The notes under the pieces are model-generated. The model saw nothing but the letters and a program-made list of their open reading frames with translations. It was not told the origin of the DNA and ran no database searches. From Eledone cirrhosa (Eukaryota): 64,000 nucleotides of DNA. How positions within the stretch are numbered: the stretch's first letter is position 1; each line of letters starts with the position of its first letter. The DNA is taken from contig OZ024745.1 of assembly GCA_964016885.1 (NCBI GenBank), positions 125,240,001-125,304,000 of the forward strand, read 5' to 3'. The translations under genes were made by a program, and so were the position numbers. Of the stretch, positions 1,290 through 63,082 are shown one piece after another.

Positions 1290-2622
1290 AGAGAGAGAGG
1301 GTGAGATGTATATATGTCTCTCTGTATGTGTGTGAGCGCGCGTGTGTGTGTATGCATGTATGTGTGATTGTCTGTATGTGAACAAGGAAACATTTGTGTT
1401 AAGAAGCGTTAAGCGTATTTGAATTTCAAAAAGTCGTTAGTTTATTGTACGCTACTAAAATACACGATTACATATAATGTAGCCGAATAATTTTGGCATA
1501 GAAAACTATTAAGTGAATATGCATATGAAGTATCAAGGAGTTGCTACTAATAAAACAGCTAAAATCATCCATTAATAATAGACCAATAGAATAGACAGCA
1601 TATCTAAGAACGTGTGGTTGTGATATTTTATAAAACGGCAACTGTGTTTTTTTTTTTTTAGATAAGATCTAATATGTTTGGTTGTTTTTCAGCAAATGCA
1701 CTACGGGTGTGAGTGCAGTACTCTAACATATAAATTGCCGAAGATTTGTAGTAGCATCGTTGCATATGAAATGTAATGTTGCATTGAATGTTTTGTTTTC
1801 TTATACACCTTAGGAAAGAGAGATTTTTTCAACTAACTAATAATATTAATAAACACCAACTTTTGTGATGTCGATAGTAAAATTTGTAGAGAATGGGTAA
1901 AGTGAACTGCACTACATTGTTGTTTCCATTAACACTCTGAATTCAAATTCTGCTTTGGTCTTCTTCCCCTTAGATACTTCAATAATTGTTAAAATAAATA
2001 GCGGTCCTAGCGGCAGGGTTCATTTATTTAGACTTCAACCATCCCGTAAGATCTATGGTCTTCAAATATATAAGAAATCAGATTCAAAATATAGCATACG
2101 ATATTCAATAGAGCATGGAATAAAAAAGACTACCTTGAAATACGATTAAGAAAGGATTGAGAAAACTATTCCTGAAGTCACCAATCCGATAAAGATATCA
2201 ATATCTTTGTGCAATTTCGCTCAAATATGCTCTTTTATAATTGAGTATATTGATAGAGGGTGTGATTATTTCCAATGTAAATTCAAAATTCGTGTATGTG
2301 CCAGGATTTAACACATTTCCTCTCGTATACACACACACGCGCGTGCGCACACATATACAGACATGCACGCACAGACACGGTCACACTCACAAACACACAC
2401 CCACACACATACATACACACACACACACACTCACATAAATATATATATATATATCTATTTTCTTTATGTCGTTTTGGAAATCTCAACATCCGACAGATAA
2501 ACTTCCACACCCCATTGTTTCGCCCTAGGCCGAGGTATTTTGTCTTTAATGCGAAGAAATACGTATGACACCTAATAGACAACTGACGATGTATATTCCT
2601 GACTTCTAATTTCTTATTTTTC

Positions 2623-2683
<61 letters not shown>

Positions 2684-2880
2684 ATAGGGTACAGTGTATT
2701 TGGCAATATACTGAATGTTTAATTAAAAACATTTTGAAGACAATTCGCTGTTAGTTTTAAAGCAATGCCTATGTGACTTATTCTCGGCAAATAAAACAGA
2801 GAGTTATCGACAGACAGTCTGTTTCTCGCTTATTAACGTTTATCAAGACTACACACTCCGCATATATATATTTATGTATA

Positions 2881-2913
<33 letters not shown>

Positions 2914-3490
2914 ATGTATATATATATATTATGTAACTATATTTATCCCATTACAGAAACTAATTAGTTGGAGTGAAAATTTTAGTAAGTAAGTTGATTT
3001 TTAATTTTTAAAATTTTCTTATTTTACGTCTTTCATATAATTGTCCTGCATTCACCTGCATAGAACCACATAGGTACTAAGACATAACTTATATATTTGC
3101 TAGCATGTGTGTACATCTGTACACATATGTTGGTAGATGTACTAATTCTCTATATTTATCTCCAAATTATTTGTTGAGCAAAACTTGCCAAATTTACTGC
3201 TGTTTCATGGTAGTAGTAGGCTCTTGTCATAATACCACCCCGCTCCTAACTGATTAACCTCGGTGTCACGTGATTGATTCTTTAGAATCTGCCACTGACC
3301 ACAGGCAGTGAATTTTTTCAGTGCTCCGGAATCTAGTCCTCGCTAGCTTCATTCCATCTACTGAATTATTATTTGTATATGAGTTCCTAGTGTCCGCGCA
3401 TTGCCTGGGAACTTAGCTGAGAATAGACTCCCAGATGACGTAATGAATTCTCTATAGTTATATATATTATGTAAGCATTATATATTATGT

Positions 3491-3722
3491 AAGCATTTTG
3501 AAGACCGTATGCTATTGTTTTAGAATATAACATCAGTAATCTCAGTAGACAGGAGGGGTAGTTAGCCTTGATAAGCTTCAACAAAAGCGAAACAAGGCCT
3601 TGTCGGCTTATCTCCCCTGTTTGCTGAGATTAAAGTAAGTGAATTTGTCACTACTCTAAAACAATAGCATACGGTCTTCAAAATGCTTTTAATTAAGCAT
3701 AAAGTGTATTGCAAAATACATT
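3491..3722 (+). mobile_element. Miniature non-coding fold-back element carrying a hammerhead ribozyme
   Basis: Perfect 34-bp inverted repeats at 3491-3524 and 3655-3688 (aagcattttgaagaccgtatgctattgttttaga) surround an HHR. A ~34-nt unpaired 3' tail follows, ending in TA repeats. Confidence 0.75.
3564..3608 (+). ncRNA. Type I hammerhead ribozyme, U3-A8 core variant
   Basis: agcc-TTGATAA-gctt caacaa aagc-GAA-acaaggccttgt-C-ggct. Helices I, II and III all pair, helix III is palindromic, and the GUC cleavage site falls after 3604. Helix I extends across 3538-3631 with G-U pairs. Confidence 0.85.
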
Positions 3723-3782
3723 ATATATACATCCATATATATATTGCTATTTCAGAGCTCCAATTCTAATTTTTAATAGTGA

Positions 3783-3899
3783 AGGCGTGTGGCTGAGTGG
3801 TTAGAGTATTGGATTCACAATCGTGAGGTTGTGAGTTCGATTCCTGAACCAGGCGATGCGTTATGTCCTTGAGCAAGACACTTTATTTCACGTTGCTCC
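3783..3899 (+). mobile_element. tRNA-derived CORE-type SINE, 3'-truncated
   Basis: A box tggctgagtgg and B box agttcgattcc, followed by a CORE-like tgtccttgagcaagacactttatttcacgttgctcc. Confidence 0.7.
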
Positions 3900-4025
3900 T
3901 TCTACCTGGAGTTGCGACCGATAGATAGTATTAGCAATTGGAAAGACCAACGGAAACATAGTTTCCTCGGTCCGATTTGACGAAAGTCGATCGACTAGAA
4001 TATATATATAGTTTTAATATAGATG

Positions 4026-4076
4026 AGATTCTACAGGACTACGACTGTTTCATTCTTTAGAAATCATCAGGAATCT
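4026..4076 (-). ncRNA. Hammerhead-like motif with an insert after the cleavage site (degenerate)
   Basis: Minus strand reads agattc-CTGATGA-tttctaaagaat-GAA-acagt-C-(11 nt)-gaatct, just before a TA run. It sits at the end of a region with an imperfect ~195-bp tandem duplication (4113-4505). Confidence 0.5.
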
Positions 4077-4518
4077 GGCTTTCCAAAAATAAATGTTGTG
4101 GTATTTATAGCTTTTCAGGTGTTAGGAGAGGGTGGGGAGTTAATGGGTAGAGGTCATTGGTTGAAAGAAAAGGGAATTCATTAAAAGCTAATTCTTTAAC
4201 GCTATAATTTATATTTAGAGTGACAAAGGCAGAAAGAATTCTATAAACAAGTTCAGAATGGAGTGCCACTCCTTATTTTTAACTTTCTCTTAAGCTAACA
4301 ATGCCTATATTTCAGGTGTCTATAAGATCATTGGGGGTCGGTCATGGTTAATGGATCTAAAGAAAAGGGAAATTCTTTAAAAGCTAATTCTTTAAAGTTC
4401 TACTTAGAGTGACAAAGGCCAAGAGAATTCTATAAACCTGTTCAAAATATTGGGTGCCTATCATATCATTATCTTCAAATTTCTCTTAAGCTATATTCCA
4501 GGTGTCGACAGACACATT

Positions 4519-8889: not shown

Positions 8890-8973
<84 letters not shown>

Positions 8974-8983
8974 AACCAGTAAG

Positions 8984-9077
8984 ACCCCGACGGCTGAGCT
9001 CAAGCCGTTTCGACGGCTAATTCTGGACTAAATGAAAATTTATCCTGGTATTTAAATAGCCGAGCTTCTCAAGGGGT
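8984..9077 (-). ncRNA. Hammerhead ribozyme, U3-A8 variant (mirror copy)
   Basis: Reverse complement of 11042-11135. Confidence 0.7.
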
Positions 9078-9799
9078 AATTCCATATATGGTCAAGGTGA
9101 TTGTCAAAAGTCAGTAGTAATTCTGTGATTGCAAATTAGTAGGGGAGATGGTGGCTAAACCTGCCAGTAGGAGAAAAAGGGGAGGAGGTGGAGTAGACCC
9201 AATCATGCGTTGGTAGTGCCAGCTACAGCTGGGCATGAGGTCAAAGAAGATACTGGGGAGGGGGAGGGGGAGGAAGTCGGAACGGTAGGTAGAACAATGA
9301 GGGGTAAAAATATATATATGAAGGAAAAAATACTGAGAGTGATGAAAAGCGAATAAGTGTAAAGAAAAATAAAGTAAAGCAAGTTCTACGACCTAAGTCT
9401 CTAGCTATTGTTAGGCTAGATAAATAAATAAATAAAGAAAGAAATAAATAAAGAAAGAAATAAAGAAATAACGAAATAAGTAAATAAACTAGGTGGGACG
9501 GAATAGGCAAGGACCCTTTTAAGAGGTATAAGTACGTAAATCATACGGTGACGGGTCAACAAATGGGGCCAAAAAGCTAAAGAAACTACCACGAAATAAA
9601 TAATAAAGGTGTCTAACCCGGCACAATGCCAGCAACCTAGTGCAGCAAAGTAAACTAGTACGAGATAATAATTCTGAGTCCCGAAAAAAAAATATACTAA
9701 TGCTAACTCAAAAAGATCTTATACAAGCTACATGAAAGTTCGTACGGAGTAAAGGTAGAATACGGAAAAATAAATTCAGAATCCCCCCCACCTTTATAA

Positions 9800-9925: not shown

Positions 9926-11041
9926 ATTAGGGCTATAACACCCCACTTGCCGATTTTGCAATGGGTAACCCTTGCTTGCCAAGGGAGACGTAAGATCTTC
10001 GTTTTATTCTTTTATCGCTTCCTTTATGTCCTTCTTCCCCCACCCCTCCTTAGTCCTTCTACCCCAGTTCTTCTTCTTTGTCGGCGTCTTTTCTCGCCCA
10101 CCCGAGGCTGCCCTTTGGCCCCTTGTAGCCTCAGTACCCCCACCCCCTCCCCTAGTCTATGATAGATTTGGCGGACTCCGCATTTTATAGCAGTTGTGTT
10201 AGACCTCGGATACTTTCCCCCTTTTTCCGACCGCTCCCACTATTTTCCGTGCCTTCTATATTTCTTAGTGGCACTTATGCCGTATTTTCTCGTTTCAGTA
10301 TTTCTTTCATCTCTTTTCTTTTGGCGGGGTGGATTCTGAATTTATTTTTCCGTATTATACCTTTACTTCGTACGAACTTTCATGTAGCTGTATAAGATAT
10401 TTTAGAGTTAGCATTAGTATATATTTTTTTCGGGACTCAGAATTATTATCTCGTACTAGTTTACTTTGCTGCACTGGGTGGTTGCTGGCATTGTGCCCGG
10501 GATAGAAACCTTTATTATTTATTTCGTGGTAGTTTCTTTAGCTTTTTGGCCCCATTTGTTGACCCGTCACCGTATGATTTACGTGCTTATACCTCTTAAA
10601 AGGGTCCTTGCCTATTCCGTCCCACCTAGTTTATTTACTTATTTCGTTATTTCTTTATTTCTTTCTTTATTTATTTATTTCTTTATTTATTTATTTATCT
10701 AGCCTAACAATAGCTAGAGACTTAGGTCGTAGAACTTGCTTTACTTTTTTTTTTCTTTACACTTATTCGCTTTTCGTCACTCTCAGTATTTTTTCTTTCA
10801 TATATATATTTTTACCCCTCATTGTTCTACCTACCGTTCCGACTTCCTCCCCCTCCCCCTCCCCAGTATCTTCTTTGACCTCATGCCCAGCTGTAGCTGG
10901 CACTACCAACGCATGATTGGGTCTACTCCACCCCCTCCCCTTTTTCTCCTACTGGCAGGTTTAGCCACCATCTCCCCTACTAATTTGCAATCACAGAATT
11001 ACTACTGACTTTTGACAATCACCTTGACCATATATGGAATT

Positions 11042-11135
11042 ACCCCTTGAGAAGCTCGGCTATTTAAATACCAGGATAAATTTTCATTTAGTCCAGAATT
11101 AGCCGTCGAAACGGCTTGAGCTCAGCCGTCGGGGT
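11042..11135 (+). ncRNA. Hammerhead ribozyme, U3-A8 variant with a large loop II
   Basis: acccc-TTGAGAA-gct cggcta...(~35 nt)...tagccg tc-GAA-acggc ttgagctca gccgt-C-ggggt, with the predicted cleavage after 11130. Confidence 0.7.
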
Positions 11136-11225
11136 CTTACTGGTTCCTATTACCCACTCTACTACCTAAGTATTTAGTACTTTGGTGCGTTATGGTCCAC
11201 CTGGTTCCTTACCACATTTCCTTCG

Positions 11226-12928: not shown

Positions 12929-13748
12929 ATATATATATAAATTAATAAATACAATGAATAAAAACAAAGAAACAGTTCCTTATATTAAAAAATTCATCAT
13001 TTTACGATCGTTTCTAGGATATATATGTGTGTGTTGGTATGTATATCATATAGATCTATGTAAACATTTTACAAACTATCAGAGGGAATATACATACTTA
13101 CACATATATATGCTGTCTTCAGAAATAATGATATTTGTTTATTGAAAAAAACCAACAAAGATTTAATATAATAGGTCTGTTTGGGAAATTGATGATTCCT
13201 TACATAATCTTTCACTTTTCACGCCTACAATTGTGTCTCTTATTTCTTTTATATTAAATCTTTTCCCTCGCTTTGTTTCTCCATAAACCACCAACTCATA
13301 TACTTCCAAAGAGAACACCAAACAAAATACGATCGTTCGTTTACGATTCTACAAGAGAGTTCCAAAAGGGTTTTTTAGCTAGGCAGAATTTTCCACTAAT
13401 TTTCCGTCACAAAACGACCCTATAATTGTATAAAGTAGACAAGTTTTGGGCGCACTATGTAAGTAGAAAACGTAGGGAGTTTTCTCATAGAACTTTAAAC
13501 AATTACTGGTCGACTGAACTTGCGCTAATGTTAATCAACAGCATCACCCATTCATAATTATCCACCGCTATTAAAAGAACTTCGATTATTGCAATTCAAA
13601 CAACATAATAAATATCTTAAACTTTTTATTTACATAAAAATATATCAAAAGTAATCATAATTATTTTTATTTCCTTACCGTCTGAAGTATATTCAGCAGT
13701 CATATTCCAAAGTTTTAAATAAATGCAGCTTTTCCTTTCCAAATAATT

Positions 13749-13934
13749 GTTTCTACTTTTGGCACAAGACCAGCAATTACTCAGTACGTTATTGGTACTT
13801 TATTTTAACGACCCCGTAAGGATGAAAGGCAAAGTTAACCTCGGCGGGATTTGAACACAGAATGGCAAGGGCCGTAACTCTATGCGTCAAAGTATGGCGT
13901 CCGACCCTCTACCGATACTGCCAATCTACCACCC
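13749..13934 (-). mobile_element. tRNA-derived SINE with a Meta/MESC-like central domain
   Basis: Reverse complement of the window consensus ggattggcagtatcggtagag...gttcaaatcccgccgaggttaactttgcctttcatccttacggggtcgataaaataaagtaccag...ccttgtgccaaaagtagaaac. Confidence 0.9.
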
Positions 13935-14899
13935 TTTCCAAATAATGCAGTCTAGCCAGAAGCAAATAATTCTGTATATTTTTAATTTCGTGTTGCATTA
14001 CGAAGAAGTTTATTTGCTAAGATATCAAAGTTTCATCCTTAGCTCACAAATCATGTTTCTATTTTATTTGTTGGATTTCTTTTTGCAGAACTGACATATG
14101 TTGTTTATAACTAACATTAGGAAAAGTTTTGTTTACAAATACTATCATCAAATCGTACAGCTTCTTTTGTTTCTTTTCCTACTCATTAATTGACTAGACA
14201 GATTGTTCCTATTCATTTGAATTCGACAAATATTTTCTTGATACACGCCACTATCAATGGTGTACAAAGCTATTTTTTAGGGATATATTTCCACTTTTCC
14301 CTCGTTACTATTTCAAATTTAATCTCTTTCATCTATTTCTGCTTTTCATTTTAACAGGAGAAACTATTATACCCACATAATTGATTCATAAATCAAACAC
14401 AACCATTAAATTTATAACGGCAAGGGATGTGGTTGTGAGGAATTATTATGTTGACCAGATCATATCTGATCGAGTAGAGATATGACCAAAGACATTCCAC
14501 CATATTTCACATAGCCCCAGTTTGATGCGAATACATTATTTTTACTGTTGTATTGTATCGTGTGATACATTATAAATTGTTCAAATATAACTTCATACGG
14601 TATATTACGTAATAGATAAAATAAGGAAAATTGGCTACGCTCAAAATACTGAAGACTCTATGGAATTCACACCGTGGTGACGCGTGTTTAAAAATGCCCA
14701 TGCCAGTATTCCGGACTGCAACAAGCTGTGACGTCACACACTTCATAATTCATGAAGTATTTGAATTTATCACAGATAGTCAGGGCTATGAGGATGAGGT
14801 AAATTTACTAAAACATACCTACATTAAGCTAGTAAATGGGGATTCCGCGTAATATTGACATGTGCCTAAACAGTTAATTCCATCTTTGGGGCAATTTCT

Positions 14900-19099: not shown

Positions 19100-19830
19100 G
19101 GCAGTATCGGTAGAGAGTCAGGCGCCATGCTTTCTAGCATAGTTATGTCCCTTTATGATCTGAGTTCAAATCCCGCCGAGGTTAACTTTGCCTTTCATCC
19201 CTACGGGGTCGATAAGATAAAGTATCAGTCACGCACTGGGGTCGATTTAATCGACTTTCCCCTCCCCCTAAAAATTGCTGGCCTTGTGCCTATATAAGAA
19301 ACCATTATCACTCTAGAGGGCGGTGGATTGGCAGTATCGGTAGAGAGTCGGACACCGTGCATTGCAGCATAGAGATACGGTCCTTTACGGTCTGAGTTCA
19401 AATCCCGTCGAGGTTAACTTTGCCTTTCATCCTTACCGGGTTGATAAAATAAAGTACCAGTAACGTACTGAGGTCGATTTAATCGACTTTCCAAATTACT
19501 GGCCTTGTGCCTATATAAGAAACCATTATATTATCACTCTAGATTCTTCTGTTGAAGCATTCTTCGTCTTTTTACAATAATATACTCTTGTAATTTAAAA
19601 TTATTTATTATTAAATATGTATATGTGAATGTATTATGTACGTATGGGCGTATATATGTATTTATGTATGTATTTATGTATTTATGTATGTATGTATTTA
19701 TGTATGTATGGATTGGCAGCATTGGTAGAGGGTCGGACGCCATGCTTTGACGCATAGAGTTACGGCCCTTGCCATTCTGAGTTCAAATTCCGCCAAGGTT
19801 AACTTTGCCTTTCATCCTTACGGGGTCGAT
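19100..19830 (+). mobile_element. Cluster of three SINEs (19100-19303, 19318-19524, 19709-19830)
   Basis: Match the window SINE consensus. An attatcactc repeat flanks the first two, like a target-site duplication. Confidence 0.9.
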
Positions 19831-33184: not shown

Positions 33185-33229
33185 AAATAAAGGATTATGA
33201 GTTCATGCAATTGACTGATGTTTCGTCAC

Positions 33230-33288
<59 letters not shown>

Positions 33289-33290
33289 TA

Positions 33291-33344
<54 letters not shown>

Positions 33345-33347
<3 letters not shown>

Positions 33348-34483
33348 GAGGCGTATCTGAACCCACCCATAAGTTATCCCACCGGACTCGTAATAGCAAA
33401 TATAATACCTCTAGGAGACAAGTCGAGCCCCCTGTGCGCTCACGCATTGGTGTTGGTTTGGCTGGATCTTATTCTAGTAATGTTGCTCCTACTGATCCTA
33501 TCATTGGCCTTAATCCTCTTGTAGGGATTCTGGACAACAGCGGATATACTGGAGGTAGAAACTATAATAGGCATAACGAAATTATGGCTGATTCTATGAA
33601 TGTGGCTTCAACTATTCCCGATAGTAACCCTAGTCTCGACGGTGGGACATTTGATAGAGGTAGGGTCGATAAGAATAAAAATAAAAATAGAAGGCGATTA
33701 AATACTTATTTCAACCCGCCATATAATCAGGATGTATCAACTAATATCCCTAGGTCTTTCTTTACTATCTTAGAGAAAAATTTACCCCCTTCTCACAAAT
33801 ACCATGGTATTTTTAATAAAAATGTTATTAAACTCTCATTCTCTACCACCCCTAATATTAGTTCTCATTTAGCTAGCACTAATAATAGGAAAATTAGGGA
33901 TGGATTCTCCTCTCTACATACTACTAGTCTGAATGCATCGGACAATGCTTTACCACCAGAACAGTCCTTATCTAATAGAGGTCCTACGTGTAATACATCA
34001 CCGCTCGAGCCAACCAATAACACCCGGAAGTGCAATTGTAGAGTGAGTGCTAACTGCCCTCTAAACGGTAACTGCCTTTCTAAGAACATTGTCTATGCTT
34101 GCGAGGTTATAATTAATTCCTCTAAAAGAACGTATATAGGATCTACTTCAAACACTTTTAAGACTAGGTTTAACTCCCATATCTCTAACTTCAAACATGT
34201 TAGGTTTAAGAATTCTACCTCTCTAGCGCATTATATCTGGGATCTTAAGGGAGCTTATATACCATATAGCCTTAACTAGAGTTTAGTAGCACGATCTAAC
34301 CACCTTTCTGCACATAGTAAGTTTTGTAATCTCTGTATACTTGAGACACACTCTATTATTTCCTCTAGCGTACCCTTACTGAATAGAAAGTCTGAGATAT
34401 TCTCTTCTTGCCCCCATGCCATTTCTAATTCTTATTTTTATTATAAACCCAAATGTTCTAGTACTACAAATTGTACCCATTAG
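33345..34483 (+). pseudogene. Penelope-like ORF C-terminal half (linker/thumb, Zn-knuckle, GIY-YIG) with one premature stop
   Basis: YFNPPYNQDVSTNI...HKYHGIFNKNVIKLSFSTTPN...CNCRVSANCPLNGNCLSKNIVYACEV...TYIGSTSNTFKTRFNSH...TSLAHYIWDLK. The TAG at 34277 is probably a mutated Trp codon. The frame then continues CNLCILE...LLNRKSEIFSSCPH to a stop at 34481-34483. Confidence 0.9.
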
Positions 34484-36132
34484 CAGATATATTCCATTAC
34501 TTAGTTTTTTGTTTGGGTTCTTTTGTTTGCCAACATTAATGTTATCATTGGTTTTTGATGACTCTTCATTCTAGCTCTCATAATCATTTGGCCACTGTAC
34601 CATATCTATGTCTTCACTATTACACCTTGTTAGTATACATAAGATTACACACTTTACGCCACTTACGTTATTCTATTATTATCTTTATATTTTTTTTTTA
34701 TTATTATTAACTTTAATTTTAATTTTAATTTTATTTTTATTTTTAATTCTATTTTTATTTCTAAGTCTATTCTGATTTATCTATCGACAACCCCCCCCCC
34801 CCTTTCTCCCCCCCCCCACGCACACATAAACTTATTGTCAACCCCTCCAGATTGAATATGATTATATTTAACCCCCCCCTCTTTTGTGCTCCGTTCTATT
34901 ATTTATTATAGTATATCGAATATATTTTATGCCACTTCGCACCCTCCATATATTTTGTCAATTCTGTCCCCATTAGCCTACCTTAACTCTACTTAAGTCA
35001 GTTTTTTAGATATCGTTGCGTATATGATAGTATAGTTTTATTCCTTTTTGTAAACATTTGTAACGATACATTAAAGTTTATATACTTTAATGACTTAAAC
35101 TACAGCTAATATTATACTACCTTATTGGACGGGTTCGATATTTTTAATATTAATTTATCAGATAGGGTTTGGAGTCATTTAAAATGATCGCTTTCCTTGG
35201 TGTTTACCTAATTTCTTAAATACACGCGAGGCCTAAATGTGTATACATTTGCTTTTGTTTTGTAATTTCCGGTTGATTGTATTTATTTGTTTTATTCTAT
35301 ATTCTATTTACTATTCACTGTCTGGCTTCGCTCACTCATCCACATATGTCTGTCTACTAACCTTGTAATTATAAGTATTTATATATTTTATGCCAATTTT
35401 AAAATATATTATATTATATTGTATGTAATATAGATCCTTATTGCTTACCGTTCATTGTATGTAACATTATGATATTTAAACTTTATATATCATGTAAGAT
35501 GTCTGGATTTTTTTAATATTGTAATATGTAACATTATGATATTTAGACTTTACATATCATGTTAGATGTCTGTATATTTTTTTCTGTAACATCATATTTT
35601 TTTCTGTAACATCATAATTTTTCCCTGTACCATTATAGTTTTTTTTAGTATTATATGATTTATATTTCCTCATTTATTATGTAACCCAGTATGAATCAAT
35701 TTGTATATAGTGTTTATGGTACATGTTAATATACTGTTAACATTTTATCATTGTATTTCATTGTGATATTGTTTCTGTAAATTAACCGGGGATTATCTAT
35801 TCTATTTTATTATATTATATTGAATTATATTATTTTGTTGTTTATTATTTGTTATATGTGTTTCTTGTAATTATATCATATTATTGCCTCATGTATATTG
35901 GGTAGATGTATTAGTATTATTTTCACTATTACCATGCTTATTTTTAATATTCAAACTTCTAATAGGGCTTAATTTCTGTGTAGTCGAACATAGATATGTG
36001 CATTGTTATATGTGTGTGTGTGTGTGTGTGTGCGCACATATATACATGTATATATTGTACCTTTTGATTTTTAATTTGGAATTTTAATGTTGGTAAAAGT
36101 ATATTATTATTATAATGTATTATAATAATAAT

Positions 36133-36318
36133 AGGGCGGTGAATTGGCAGTATCGGTAGAGGGTTGGACGCCATGCTTTCTAGCATAGTTACGTCCCTTT
36201 ACAGTCTGAGTTCAAATCCCGCCGAGGTTAACTTTGCTTTTCATCCTTACGGGGTCGATAAAATAAAGTACCAGTAATACACTGGGTAATTGCTGGCCTT
36301 GTGCCTAACGTAGAAACA
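36133..36318 (+). mobile_element. tRNA-derived SINE inserted in the Penelope-like 3' region
   Basis: Full match to the window consensus. Confidence 0.9.
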
Positions 36319-36580
36319 ATTATAATGTATTATATTGTGTTATATATAATTCCTGCTCTATATAACCAAATTTGTTTAGATTTAGGTTGGTGGCTTTGGA
36401 CTATATTTGTAATATGGTTCTTAATGTTATCTACATCCTTAGTTATTATATATTTTTATTATTTTTATCTTTATTTTCATTTTTATTATCGTATATCTTT
36501 GTAAGACATTAGTGTATGTACACTCCATATTCTTCAGAGTTTCTGGCTTGTATCTGCCGATATTACCTCTTGTTGTTTTG

Positions 36581-36625
36581 ATTGCCCTGATGAGTCCTTA
36601 ATAGGACGAAACATTGTCGGCTAAT
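36581..36625 (+). ncRNA. Canonical minimal type I hammerhead ribozyme
   Basis: gcc-CTGATGA-gtcct taat aggac-GAA-acattgt-C-ggc followed by aataaa, with the GUC cleavage site after 36618. Confidence 0.9.
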
Positions 36626-36768
36626 AAAAACTTTTTTTGTATTAAAGGATTCTTTGTTTTACTCTCTTAATTTTTTGGCTCTGTTTAACTGCATTGAGCT
36701 ATACCTTTTACTGTCATTTCTATAATACGAAGAGGGTGTTTGACTCAAACACGCTCCAGTATTCTAAT

Positions 36769-41400: not shown

Positions 41401-41788
41401 AACAGTTTAAGAAATAGATTCATAGGCATATTAGATTAATACTTAAAATTAAGCGAAATGACAAAGATGAGACAATGTTTATAATACTGTAGCTGTTTTG
41501 GACGTAGTTATAATAGTTATTGTTATAATATTCCAAATTGAACGCTAAGTAAATTAGCAAGCAAAACTAGACGGTAAAACAATAAAATTAATGAATGCAT
41601 TTAGAATACAGTAAAACAACCGTGAAGTAATTTGAGTGGGGTCTTCTATGACCAGACAATTACTGTTATTTACTGTAGATTTATCAAATCAATTATTCCT
41701 CTTGTTACCAAACTTTGCATTAAGGTCACAACCAATGATTTTCAAATACTCAAAAGTTGAAGTGTTTTACTAAACTAATGTTATTATT

Positions 41789-42301
41789 GGTGAATTGGCA
41801 TTATCGGTAGAGGGTCGGATTATGCTTTCCAGCATAGTTACGTCCCTTTACGATTTGAGTTCAATTCCCGCCGAGGTTAACTTTGCCTTTCATCCTTACG
41901 GGGTCGATAAAATAAAGTACCAGTAATGTACTGGGATAATTGCTGGCCTTGTGCCAAAAAGTAGAAACAATTATTATTAAGCACGTGTAGAGTGGTGGAT
42001 TGGCAGTATCAGTAGAGGGTCGGACACAATGCTTTGCAGCATAGAGTTAAGGTCCTTTATGATCTGAGTTCAAATAACTTTGCCTTTCATCCTTACGGGT
42101 CGATAAAATAAAGTACCAGTCACGCACTGGGGTCGATTTAATCGACCCCAGTACGTTACTGCTGCTACATGTTATCGACCCAGTAAGGATGAAATGCAAA
42201 GTTAACCACGGTGGGATTTGAACTGAGACCGTAAAGGGCCGAAACTCTATGCTGTAATGCATGGTGTCCGACTCTTTACCGATACTGCCAATCCACAACC
42301 C
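41789..42301. mobile_element. SINE cluster: 41789-41969 (+), 41992-42146 (+), 42172-42301 (-)
   Basis: Match the consensus. The last two are tail-to-tail around the palindrome ctggggtcgatttaatcgaccccag. Confidence 0.9.
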
Positions 42302-42389
42302 TAATAATATCAAATAATACAAGAAATAAGATAAAAGACAACTATTAGGAGGCTGGAGAAAAACTATTTCCCCCGAAACAACGTAAGCC

Positions 42390-52071: not shown

Positions 52072-52252
52072 ATAGGGGGGAAAAGACGATTATTAGGAAG
52101 AAAAATATTGTTTCCCCCTTTTAATTTTTTCTCTTTTTTCTGAGTTAGAAAATGTTTAAAACAAAATATTTTACTTTGTGTTAAGGTATTAGTTAATTTA
52201 AATATTAATTAACAATGGCATTTATTTATTTATTTATATATTCAATAACTGT

Positions 52253-52290
52253 CTATTACCGGTTTCAGCATTTTATACATTATCAAATGG
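52253..52290 (-). ncRNA. Degenerate hammerhead motif with a U3-A8 core
   Basis: ccat-TTGATAA-t gtat aaa atgc t-GAA-accggt-A-atag, downstream of the minus-strand Penelope-like ORF and ~190 nt from (TA)n. Confidence 0.5.
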
Positions 52291-52465
52291 GGGAATTTGT
52301 ATTGGTGTAAAATGTTGATGTTGAACATGTTAAGGAAATGGTGAAGAAAGAATAATGTTATTTACAAACAAGGTTTTTGAAGTGAAAAAAAAGAAAAAAG
52401 GGGTGTAATGTGGAACATAATAAGGTAATGGGAAAGAAAGAATTTTATTATTTACAGGCATACAC

Positions 52466-52651
52466 GGTGGTGGATTGGCAGTATCAGTAGAGAGTCGGAC
52501 ACCATGCTTTGAAGCATAGAGTTACGTCCCTTTATGATCTGAGTTCAAATCCCGCCGAGGTTAACTTTGCCTTTCATCCTTACGGGGTCGATAAAATAAA
52601 GTACCAGTAATGTACTGGGTAATTGCTGGCCTTGTGCCTAAAATAGAAACA
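52466..52651 (+). mobile_element. tRNA-derived SINE
   Basis: Matches the window consensus. Confidence 0.9.
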
Positions 52652-52940
52652 ATTATTTACAGGCATAGTTCTTGAATATAAGCAGTTCAAAATGTGTTAT
52701 TATGGCAAGAGTGATTAGTTGATTCATGATGGAGGTAAATGGTAGTCTGGGGTTTGATATGATTTCCCTTTTTAGAGAGTTAATATGCAGGGGGGGGGTA
52801 ATTCAGCGTGGTTAAGTAGGGGAGAGAGAAATGATAGGGGGTAATTGATTTATATAAGAAAAGGGATTAGGTAGGGTGTTAGGGAGGTAACTCTTTAGAG
52901 AACATAAGGATTTGGTTTTGGTTCATTGTTCGTTCCAGTT

Positions 52941-53760
52941 TTAGTTTAGTCCGAAGTTTAGTCCATTAAGTAGAGGTTGGTATTTGTTAATGAAGTACGT
53001 TTCCTTATTGGTAGGATGGATGAAAGAGGCGTTGTCTAGGAATTTGTAAATGGGGAACATTTTAAAGTTTGGATGTTGGTTAGGTGTACAATTGGCGATA
53101 TGTTCACTAAAAGCAATCTTTCTGTATTCCTGTATTTTGATTTGTGATATATGGCCGGTCATCCGTTGTCGGAAGCTGTTTTTTGTCTGTCCTGTGTAGT
53201 GCTCTTGATAATCTGAGCAGGTCAAAACATAGATTAGGTTTTCAGATGTAAAGTTGTGTTTAACCAGATTTCGGTCTGTGGTATTTGGCATCGAATTCGA
53301 ATTCGAATTGATGACATCAAAGGTTACTAGTAGGGTATGTTCATTATTAAGTTTGTTGGGAGGTGGTTGAGCATGTCAAGATCATCCCTTATGAAGCGTT
53401 TTATGTGTTTGAAGAAAGGTTTAAGCAGAATATCTAGGAAGTTGCTAAGGCGGTGGGTTTCACATATGGTACCTGCTATTATGGGTCTTAATTTAAGGTC
53501 ATCAGGAGGAGGTATATTGATGTAAATGTATGTGGCTTGTTTACAAGCCCTGCCTATTCGCTTTTGTGTGTCTTTGGGATACCGTAGAAGAGGCTGGTTC
53601 TGCTTTTGAAATTGGTGATGTAGTTGTATTCCTTGTCGGTAAGGCCTTCTTTGTAAAGGGGTGTTAAGGATTTTAGGTTTCTCATTATTTTCTGCTGTGT
53701 GTAGTGTTGGTCCTTTTCGTAATATGTTTGGTTTTGAGTTGAGAGTACTAGAGTCCTGTA
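52941..53760 (-). pseudogene. Internally deleted Penelope-like element: RT N-terminus joined to GIY-YIG
   Basis: SLFYGIPKTHKS, then LKLRPIIAGTICETHRLSNFLDILLKPFFKHIKRFIRDDLDMLNHLP...VTFDVI (53310-53760). GIY-YIG follows: SENLIYVLTCSDYQEHYTGQTKNSFRQRMTGH...ETYFINKYQPLLN (52941-53291). Confidence 0.85.
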
Positions 53761-54859
53761 TTTTATATATATTTTATATATATATATATATATATACCAG
53801 GTGTGCTTTTTGAACCCTATTAATTATCATTTTCCTTATATAACGTGATCTGTGTAGAACGTTTTCAAACGTCCACACTTTTTTCACTATATATATATTA
53901 CATTCAAGTAGACGACCAATTACGGCATTGTATCTAACACTCCTACTAGTTGATCTCAAAGTATCCTTAGATAAACACTCAACTGCCTGAAGCATCCCAG
54001 ATTACATTTAGGGGTCCAGCTGGAGTATATACACTGGTGCTTAGGGAATAGCATCCCTACAATGCTATAAATAGTTATTGACGTGGTCACTAGCTTATAA
54101 CAGAGCTGATATTGAGAAAGGGGAGAATGAAGTTTGTCAGTTCCCTTATCTTTCTACTCTCGATTCTCCAGAGAAACATATAGGATAATAAAAGAATGTT
54201 CGGAAGACCATCTAAAGATGCCGGATTAATGCTATGTAACCAACACACTGACAACTCGTCAAACCCTTTGAAACATCTGTAATGAAAAATGTCTCTCCGA
54301 ATATTTTTCTTTTAACTCCATGGGGCATTTAGAATCACGGTGATGATGTTTAATTGAGAAATAAAGTTGTATCAGTGACAGAATTTCGAAGATGTTGTCA
54401 CATAAATATAAAAGGAAATGGAAAATAAGCATTTTGTGCGTATTAAATATCATAGCGTAGAGTATAACATATTTAGAGTATACGTTTTGCAGTTACCATT
54501 TATAGTAATGACTTTCACGAGCAAATTTTGTAGTAGTAACTCTGGAAAGAGTGCATATGTAGGCAAGAGAACGGTGAATAACTTCATTTCATCTACTGAT
54601 TCAAGAAGATGCATTTCCTGAAAGTATAATGAATAATGGCTTCTTCTTGATGAAATTTTGAATAGTTTTTTCTGACCAATGCTTTATCAAAGTTAATGTG
54701 GTCTGTATTGTAATTCTCTTCTATTGCCTTGATATACCAGAAACAAACATTGCATAAAATTACTATATAATTGAATATATCGCATCGACAACTGTTTGAA
54801 AAACAACCCGCTCTTACCTTATTTTTCTTCCTGACAATATTCGTCATCATATATATTTT

Positions 54860-61413: not shown

Positions 61414-62032
61414 AGTATCTCTTGAGAAATTGTATGTTTCTTTATAGATTAGACTTATGACATTCTTCTATGTCACCTGTTGAAGTTTTTACAGAAATAG
61501 TCGTCTATCCTTCCAGTTGTACTAATTAGAAAGTGATTTTACAAGACATCTATTAACTGCCATATTGTATTTAATTCAATGGCTAATACAATCTAAGTTT
61601 AACACTTTTCAGTCCGATTCTACATTATTTTAAAGATATTTTGAAAATGCTATGTTGATTATCATCACGTTATTGTCATTTTTATAATGAGACATTTTGC
61701 CAAGCTTATTATAAGCTATTTGATGTTCTGTCTGTAGATCACAGTCGCACAGTATTCTTGCATTGTCATTTTCTAACAGTAATTCAATTCATTGTATTCA
61801 TTCCTTACACGTGTGGACTTGTGCCAAAGAATTATATCAGTTGACTTATTGTTATGGCGTGATATCACTGCAATACAATACTTATCTCGCTGCATTGATA
61901 CATGCAGAGTTTATCTTTCATTTATGTTTCTCTGTTAAAAGTTCTCTACATGAAATTTACAATGCCTAGCAGTGTTATTCTCTGTGGGTTATGTATTTGC
62001 GTTCGTAATTATCATTATTATTATTATTTTCA

Positions 62033-62618
62033 AGGTGGTTTGGCAGTAATCGGTAGAGCACATACACCATGCTTTGCAGCACAGAGTTCTGGCCCTTTGC
62101 GGTCTGAGTTCAAATCTTGTCGAGGTTAATTTTGCCTTTCATCTTTACGGGGTCGATAAAATAAAGTACCAGTAATGCACTGGGATAATTGCTGGCCTTG
62201 CGCCAAAATTAAAAACAATTATTATTCGTTTAAAGTGCGGTGGATTGGCAGTATTGCTAGAGCGTCAGACACCATGCTTTGCAGCATAGAGTTATGGCCT
62301 TTTAGGTTCTGAGTTCAAATCTCTCCGATGTTAGCTTTGATTTTCATCCTTACGAGGTCAATAAAATAAAGCGCCAGCAATGCATTGGGGTAATTGCCAA
62401 AAGTAGAATCAATTAATATTATTTTTGTATTGACCGGTGGATTGGCAGTATCGGTAGAGGGTTGGACGCCATGCTTTGCAGCACAGTTACGTCCCTTTAC
62501 GGACTGAGTTCAAATCCCGCCGAGGTTAACTTTGCCTTTCATCCTTACGGGGTCGATAAAATAAAGTAGCAGTAATATACTGGGATAATTGCTGGCCTTG
62601 TGCCAAAAAGTTGAAACA
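62033..62618 (+). mobile_element. Three tandem SINEs (62033-62217, 62237-62410, 62436-62618)
   Basis: Consensus matches with differing divergence. Confidence 0.9.
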
Positions 62619-63082
62619 ATTAATTTTGTATTGGCCGTCGGACTGAGAAGGTTAATTTTCAAGATTTTGCATTGAATTAATTATTGTAGTTTTTGGAGAC
62701 AAAGCGTTCATAAGATATCCGTCTTTTTCCCGTGTAAAGGTGACCCCACAATATTTGGGCTTTTCGGCCCGAATATTTGAACTTTATTATTTTTTTTTAA
62801 AATATATTTTCCTTAAAAAAAAACATGGACGAGACACACACCCTCAAGTTAAGTCACAGCAACTTAAACGTCGAGCGGAGTGATACCGCCCCTCCACAAC
62901 CATTACAAACACCAGCACAAACAACAAAATCAATGACAATAACAATACCAACAACAGTGAAAACACTAATGAGAACAAAAATGACAACAACACCAACAAC
63001 AGCAGTAACAGCGACAAAAACACCAACTTGAACAACAACATTATGCATATATGGAATACACATTCACACACAGATATATATA

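Follow-up and report, generated by a model that had tools for sequence, protein, structure and literature searches.

What kind of element encloses an intact hammerhead ribozyme in a short, perfect inverted repeat? The question arises at positions 3491–3722 of the window (the whole 64,000-nt stretch of Eledone cirrhosa DNA analysed here), which the first-pass annotation had read as a MITE-like unit of ~230 bp, bounded by inverted repeats, with an unpaired 34-nt tail and no coding sequence. The repeats are present as described: 3491–3524 and 3655–3688 match perfectly over exactly 34 bp, with no extension inward or outward. The lack of coding sequence was borne out as well, because no open reading frame of at least 120 aa in the window overlaps the element. 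Comparison with other copies moved the outer bounds: the element actually runs to 3770–3777, 89 nt beyond the right repeat; the supposed tail (3689–3722) is ordinary body sequence with a hairpin, and the 34-nt tail typical of the family lies at 3737–3770. We conclude that this is, in all likelihood, a 5′-truncated and partly inverted copy of a 317-nt retrozyme-type repeat, inserted in trans by a Penelope-like element (PLE).

A 31-mer from the body of the element has 799 exact matches in the 3.0-Gb genome (reversed control, 0), and a 29-mer over the inversion junction has one, at this locus, which removes the ground for a repeated unit bounded by the inverted repeats. The first-pass annotation had itself considered that a single copy with these boundaries would mark a one-off inversion of a long PLE; the one-off inversion stood, and the parent proved instead to be a 317-nt non-autonomous unit. 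Searching with the element gave 158 matches among the 40 scored of 1,421 candidates; most cover the part from 3514 onward, and a 317-nt spacing between them is frequent. The family is a non-coding tandem unit of 317 nt (GC content 32.5%) with one hammerhead motif per unit, and its arms hold up to three units, mostly one to three.

To describe the insertions, we mapped the 67 distinct loci behind the first 100 of the 799 31-mer places, all on one contig (C1). Two arms stand head to head at 40 loci, 24 have a single orientation and 3 are arranged otherwise. The 3′ ends are strikingly uniform: 104 of 115 segments end at one of two sites 34 nt apart, 51 at a short site (around unit position 132, window position 3736) and 53 at a long site (unit position 166, window position 3770), with 11 ending elsewhere. 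Among the 40 two-arm loci, 33 combine a short with a long end and 7 have an end at some other site; no locus carries the same end twice. TA runs follow in most of the listed 3′ flanks. Arms measure ~50 to 800 nt. The 5′ breaks of the 115 segments are scattered over the whole unit, with enrichment just downstream of the predicted cut (14 of 115 at positions 1–15, p 0.001); only two of these lie within 1–2 nt of the cut site, and the others might reflect stalling in helix I.

The locus fits this pattern. Its forward arm (3522–3777, + strand), 98% identical to other copies over 3514–3777, is 0.8 of a unit and runs from unit position 235 to 173 (3605 being position 1); it is truncated at its 5′ side, ends at the family's long 3′ end and holds a single ribozyme, with 61 nt of the unit missing. 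The tail at 3737–3770 (+ strand), defined by segment ends and end sequences, spans the distance from the short (~3736) to the long (3770) family end. The inverted arm (3491–3524, − strand) is a copy of 3655–3688, a 34-bp perfect match with a unique junction, and AGA at 3522–3524 is common to both arms. Given that the forward arm has the long end, the inverted arm would be expected to continue ~50 nt further, to the short end. Comparison with intact arms in other copies, which do so, marks it as the remnant of a longer arm. An 18-nt exact direct duplication (3461–3496) lies where the arm meets a neighbouring 540-nt repeat, which is also cut short at the join and continues differently at 19 other loci. 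A later deletion therefore likely fused the arm to its neighbour, leaving 34 bp of it and the 18-nt duplication as a scar. No flanking duplication longer than 5 nt is present at the locus, where the rearranged left flank makes for a weak test of target-site duplication. Directly after the long end, 3779–3900 (+ strand) resembles a tRNA-derived SINE by eye.

PLE insertions are described as inverted, 5′-truncated copies with a 30–40-bp tail at one end and a bias for microsatellites (Craig et al. 2021, PMC8557442). For a PLE, AT-rich DNA is reported to be cut and extended on both strands, with tail length equal to the distance between two internal reverse-transcription starts (Frangieh et al. 2024, PMC11167929); on that basis, the true tail would be 3737–3770 and the inverted repeat the overlap of two cDNA arms. 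From the rule of one short and one long end, we infer that each arm was primed from one side of the break. We propose that tandem loci are transcribed, and that two ribozymes could pair through their palindromic helix III and cut out a unit-length RNA, which would then be circularized. A PLE protein would nick AT-rich DNA, and on each side of the break reverse transcription would begin at a different one of two internal RNA positions, which are separated by 34 nt. Joining of these cDNAs through their 5′ ends would yield divergent arms, one with the tail and one without, and thus an inverted repeat of arbitrary length. The earlier suggestion of a non-coding PLE passenger gains support from this insertion signature (TA targets, head-to-head arms and two 3′ ends), and the comparison then drawn with retrozymes holds up in the 317-nt tandem non-coding unit with its type I hammerhead.

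An alternative that we consider possible, although well short of probable, retains the same family and PLE helper but makes the template an uncut linear multimer, the ribozyme being kept for another step (for example, freeing the RNA from read-through transcripts) and no circle taking part. Consistent with this idea, pooled rare variants are shared more often by same-rank units of the two arms (29 shared, 228 different) than by units of different rank (7 shared, 354 different), a test confounded by the few loci of rare subfamilies, with matched sites split 2 to 2. At one locus (L028), two variants are confined to two adjacent units, and the main substrate of an anole PLE is reported to be uncut RNA (PMC11167929). 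Against it, arms longer than one unit are still common (51 of 115 segments), and a sister family, D, carries a locus-private variant in every covering unit in 4 of the 15 loci drawn from its best matches, two of which have it in both arms. These all-unit variants (5/5, 5/5, 4/4 and 3/3 units) fit the copying of one monomer. Family D also has three arms with variants in alternate units, the first unit excepted, and one locus with a variant in two of three units, which would fit later duplication or assembly error. In the 317-nt family, divergence is 3.1–3.4% within loci versus 5.3% between loci, and young copies have mixed variant patterns. Contigs of unknown kind from four sequencing runs, aligned to one unit, include a head-to-tail join across the cut site in two runs (X1 and X6), which is accounted for by genomic tandems; for the other two, low-depth contigs on the unit numbered 3 (X4) and 1 (X5).

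In the anole PLE, insertion in vitro is reported to be independent of ribozyme cleavage (PMC11167929), and 8 of 9 Xenopus retrozyme dimers are reported without cleavage (bioRxiv 10.64898/2026.07.22.740005), so the circle step may be dispensable. Tentatively, we extend the preferred reading, a retrozyme-type repeat inserted by a PLE, to a young, diversified lineage of circular-RNA PLE parasites (317-nt U3-A8, 312-nt C3-G8 and 540-nt families) whose insertions might preserve every step of the cycle, from ribozyme cleavage gated by dimer formation, through rolling-circle reverse transcription of a single monomer, to paired priming from two fixed starts on the two sides of one break. If true, this would be the first direct genomic record of retrozyme circles as a transposition template, with a PLE protein as the motor. 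The best material for the rolling-circle question is offered by the very young arrays of family D, a 312-nt unit with a C3-G8 core whose copies are 97–100% identical. Family D aligns along the 317-nt unit and ends at 132 and 165–167, the same two ends, in a four-family alignment from which the comparison draws on rows A and D alone, the other two being out of phase. Its arrays reach 6–7 units per arm (for example, C1:412429371-412433476; loci L227–L256).

If PLEs supply the enzyme, the genome offers candidates, with long open frames of 915 and 777 aa in PLE families. A young PLE family (L317–L346) with many near-identical endonucleases and 777-aa frames is a candidate helper; judged by motifs, this and some other families would be Neptune-like. 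Sampled PLE families carry hammerheads in their pseudo-LTRs (pLTRs), several of them U3-A8, and end in TTCAT and then TA runs, as the 317-nt family does; in those labelled Neptune-like, U3-A8 ribozymes lie 144–203 nt before that end, a geometry close to that of the 317-nt family. The 915-aa family has a C3-G8 pLTR ribozyme. Within the window, 33215–36700 (+ strand) is the 3′ part of a young PLE family, with a GIY-YIG domain and a pLTR hammerhead at 36587, and other copies of this family (L152–L159) hold the 915-aa frames. A degraded PLE, presumably Neptune-like, lies at ~52100–53773 (− strand), and the 3′ region of its family carries a U3-A8 hammerhead, here at ~52286. Among 128 PLE loci of the sampled families, covered by blastn of 60 PLE loci and 8 full-length loci and by a profile scan of 60 additional 3′ flanks, no helper with homologous ends was found; the matches were only separately inserted copies of the 317-nt family. 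Given this lack of sequence homology, we infer a helper PLE rather than name one.

Could the copies instead be leftovers of an autonomous PLE, truncated pLTR fragments that never moved as elements in their own right? Genomic PLE hammerheads are reported to be mostly solitary motifs derived from truncated PLEs, and some form pairs on opposite strands, 100–700 bp apart (Cervera and de la Peña 2014, PMC4209133). By contrast, arms that continue beyond one unit here return into the unit and not into coding sequence, PLE frames near some copies are set off by TA runs or face the wrong way, and no reverse-transcriptase or GIY-YIG open frame occurs in the element or the mapped loci. The multi-unit arms largely refute this explanation, which we consider improbable.

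The ribozyme is a type I hammerhead with an extended helix I (3538–3631, + strand), recognized from its sequence, covariation and folding and from a weak Rfam match. All core parts of the complete U3-A8 hammerhead claimed earlier were found: the core TTGATAA (3568–3574), helix II (3575–3588), GAAA (3589–3592), a 12-nt, self-complementary (palindromic) helix III (3592–3603) and C17 at 3604, after which the cut is predicted. Rfam has nothing in the window at gathering level; the best match in 2600–3900 is Hammerhead_HH9 (3554–3625, E 0.0033, 23.9 bits against a gathering score of 52). The proposed ~16-bp extension of helix I, G-U pairs included, is real (3538–3553 with 3616–3631), with a more stable fold for the + strand (−43.1, z −6.4) than for the − strand (−33.5, z −4.2). 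Across 14 distinct rows, which represent only 3–4 subfamilies and were themselves the basis of the hand-drawn structure, 92% of the cells are paired, and both partners vary in 14 of the 28 pairs, with such changes in each of the four helices; none of 500 shuffles did as well, and slid controls pair at 32–43%. The basal pair of helix II is unpaired in 9 of the 14 rows (family C, A-A). In sister subfamilies the helices are maintained through compensatory changes, and the earlier suspicion of selection on the ribozyme and its long helix at the RNA level is supported. Intact cores number 84 among 92 distinct cores picked by flank pattern.

Folding energies, which leave out tertiary contacts, predict that a lone ribozyme misfolds and works as a dimer. 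The best monomer fold pairs the 5′ flank of the core with helix III (−42.4, versus −37.6 for the active fold; predicted active share ~1e-4), whereas the lowest-energy fold of two copies is a double hammerhead (−95.5, versus 2 × −42.4). PLE hammerheads are likewise reported with a U3-A8 core, a palindromic helix III, dimer action and low activity in vitro (PMC4209133). Given the predicted misfolding, the single window copy is unlikely to release a circle, and with one ribozyme and 61 nt of the unit missing, a unit-length circle from this copy alone is impossible. These predictions bear on the idea that a self-processing small RNA of rod shape is made from this locus alone, which we regard as very improbable: 3491–3688 does fold into a long rod and the core is intact, but there is only one cut site, the monomer is predicted to be inactive and the copy, ~1.5% from its relatives, has no sign of special conservation. 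The rod itself is a by-product of the inversion; the fold of 3491–3722 (z −14.75, versus −6.2 for 3525–3777 alone) owes its strength largely to inverted DNA.

A MITE-like DNA transposon with 34-bp terminal repeats and a ribozyme passenger has next to no chance of being correct, since the resemblance (a short, non-coding sequence with a perfect 34-bp inverted repeat) is confined to this one locus, whereas the junction is unique, arms vary from ~50 to 800 nt between copies, flank duplication does not exceed 5 nt, the ends are of retrotransposon type and the element continues 89 nt past the right repeat. PLE inversions are open to mis-annotation as MITEs.

Among known systems, the metazoan non-LTR retrozymes come closest (Cervera and de la Peña 2020, PMC7229834, for the features described there): a ~300-bp tandem non-coding unit, here with a low GC content of 32.5% and a 317-nt period within their ~150–450-bp range, one type I hammerhead per unit, a dimer-type helix III and PLEs in the same genome. 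Unlike them, the family has a U3-A8 core, as PLE ribozymes are reported to have, mostly one to three units rather than long satellites, and head-to-head arms with two fixed 3′ ends, and it is known here from genomic sequence. PLE pLTRs and insertions, as far as these sources describe them (PMC4209133, PMC8557442, PMC11167929), share the U3-A8 variant (Schistosoma), palindromic helix III, inverted 5′-truncated copies (40 of 67 loci here), a 30–40-bp tail at one end, AT-rich or microsatellite targets and opposite-strand hammerhead pairs; they differ in having reverse-transcriptase/GIY-YIG frames, and the family differs in its full 12-nt palindromic helix III, its long helix I and the lack of a homologous autonomous parent in the 128 PLE loci. 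Non-autonomous Chlamys elements such as MRC1 are also non-coding, multicopy, head-to-tail PLE passengers, but the Chlamys clade is reported to have no canonical hammerheads, and the 3′ ends of its passengers are similar to those of their helpers (PMC8557442).

Judged on genomic features, those of non-LTR retrozymes all appear here together with PLE-type integration, and we would place the family as a new member of that known class with unusually clear mechanistic footprints. Repeat libraries and supplements aside, we found no literature description of the 317-nt family or of a two-end rule in retrozymes. Passages of an octopus repeat annotation (PMC13282606) and of a squid genome paper, which counts 235 hammerheads (PMC6962438), describe neither. 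A PLE origin of animal retrozymes has been argued (Li et al. 2026, bioRxiv 10.64898/2026.07.22.740005), in a main text that contains neither ‘tail’ nor ‘head-to-head’, and ‘inverted’ only in a reference. The motor enzyme and the use of circles as template have been proposed, not demonstrated (PMC7229834; bioRxiv 10.64898/2026.07.22.740005, as far as their text goes). The value of the family lies in the direct link that it makes between retrozymes and PLE integration: one genome combines a strict rule of one short and one long end with sister arrays of very recent origin and with intact PLE frames, and offers defined RNA templates, predicted starts and candidate proteins.

Around the element, four hammerhead families lie within 2 kb of sequence. 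A copy of the older sister subfamily C, with a U3-A8 hammerhead, occupies 2680–2862 (− strand; 74% identity over 113 nt, assigned from the family and its flanks), and this subfamily is homologous along the unit. The 540-nt neighbour (family B, 2923–3478, + strand) is, by family comparison, a separate tandem hammerhead unit and not part of the element; its copies are 95–97% identical, and the ribozyme is broken in the window copy. Elsewhere (loci L208–L226), the hammerhead of family B is of the C3-G8 type, and its helix III is palindromic and its helix II very long. The arms of this family stand head to head and stop at sites ~115 nt from each other, with CT repeats often following the long end, and some variants are common to all units of one locus. 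A further repeat at ~4000–4490 (− strand; loci L258–L286) carries a hammerhead-like motif of C3-G8 type at its very 3′ end; its copies are 97–98% identical and terminate in TA runs.

PLEs are known to retain 5′ introns. Thirty nucleotides past the cut, GTAAGT (3635–3640) resembles a splice donor, and an acceptor-like CAG lies past the tail at unit position ~207 (locus L006); both are kept in subfamilies A and C, as is a 28-codon ATG frame spanning the tail. An 829-bp inverted repeat (8969–9792 and 10323–11150, 97% identical) is possibly another PLE-type inverted insertion, and a ~200-bp repeat recurs many times in the window, both as tandem copies and as inverted pairs (13741–13946, 19100–19543, 41788–42302, 62023–62625 and others).
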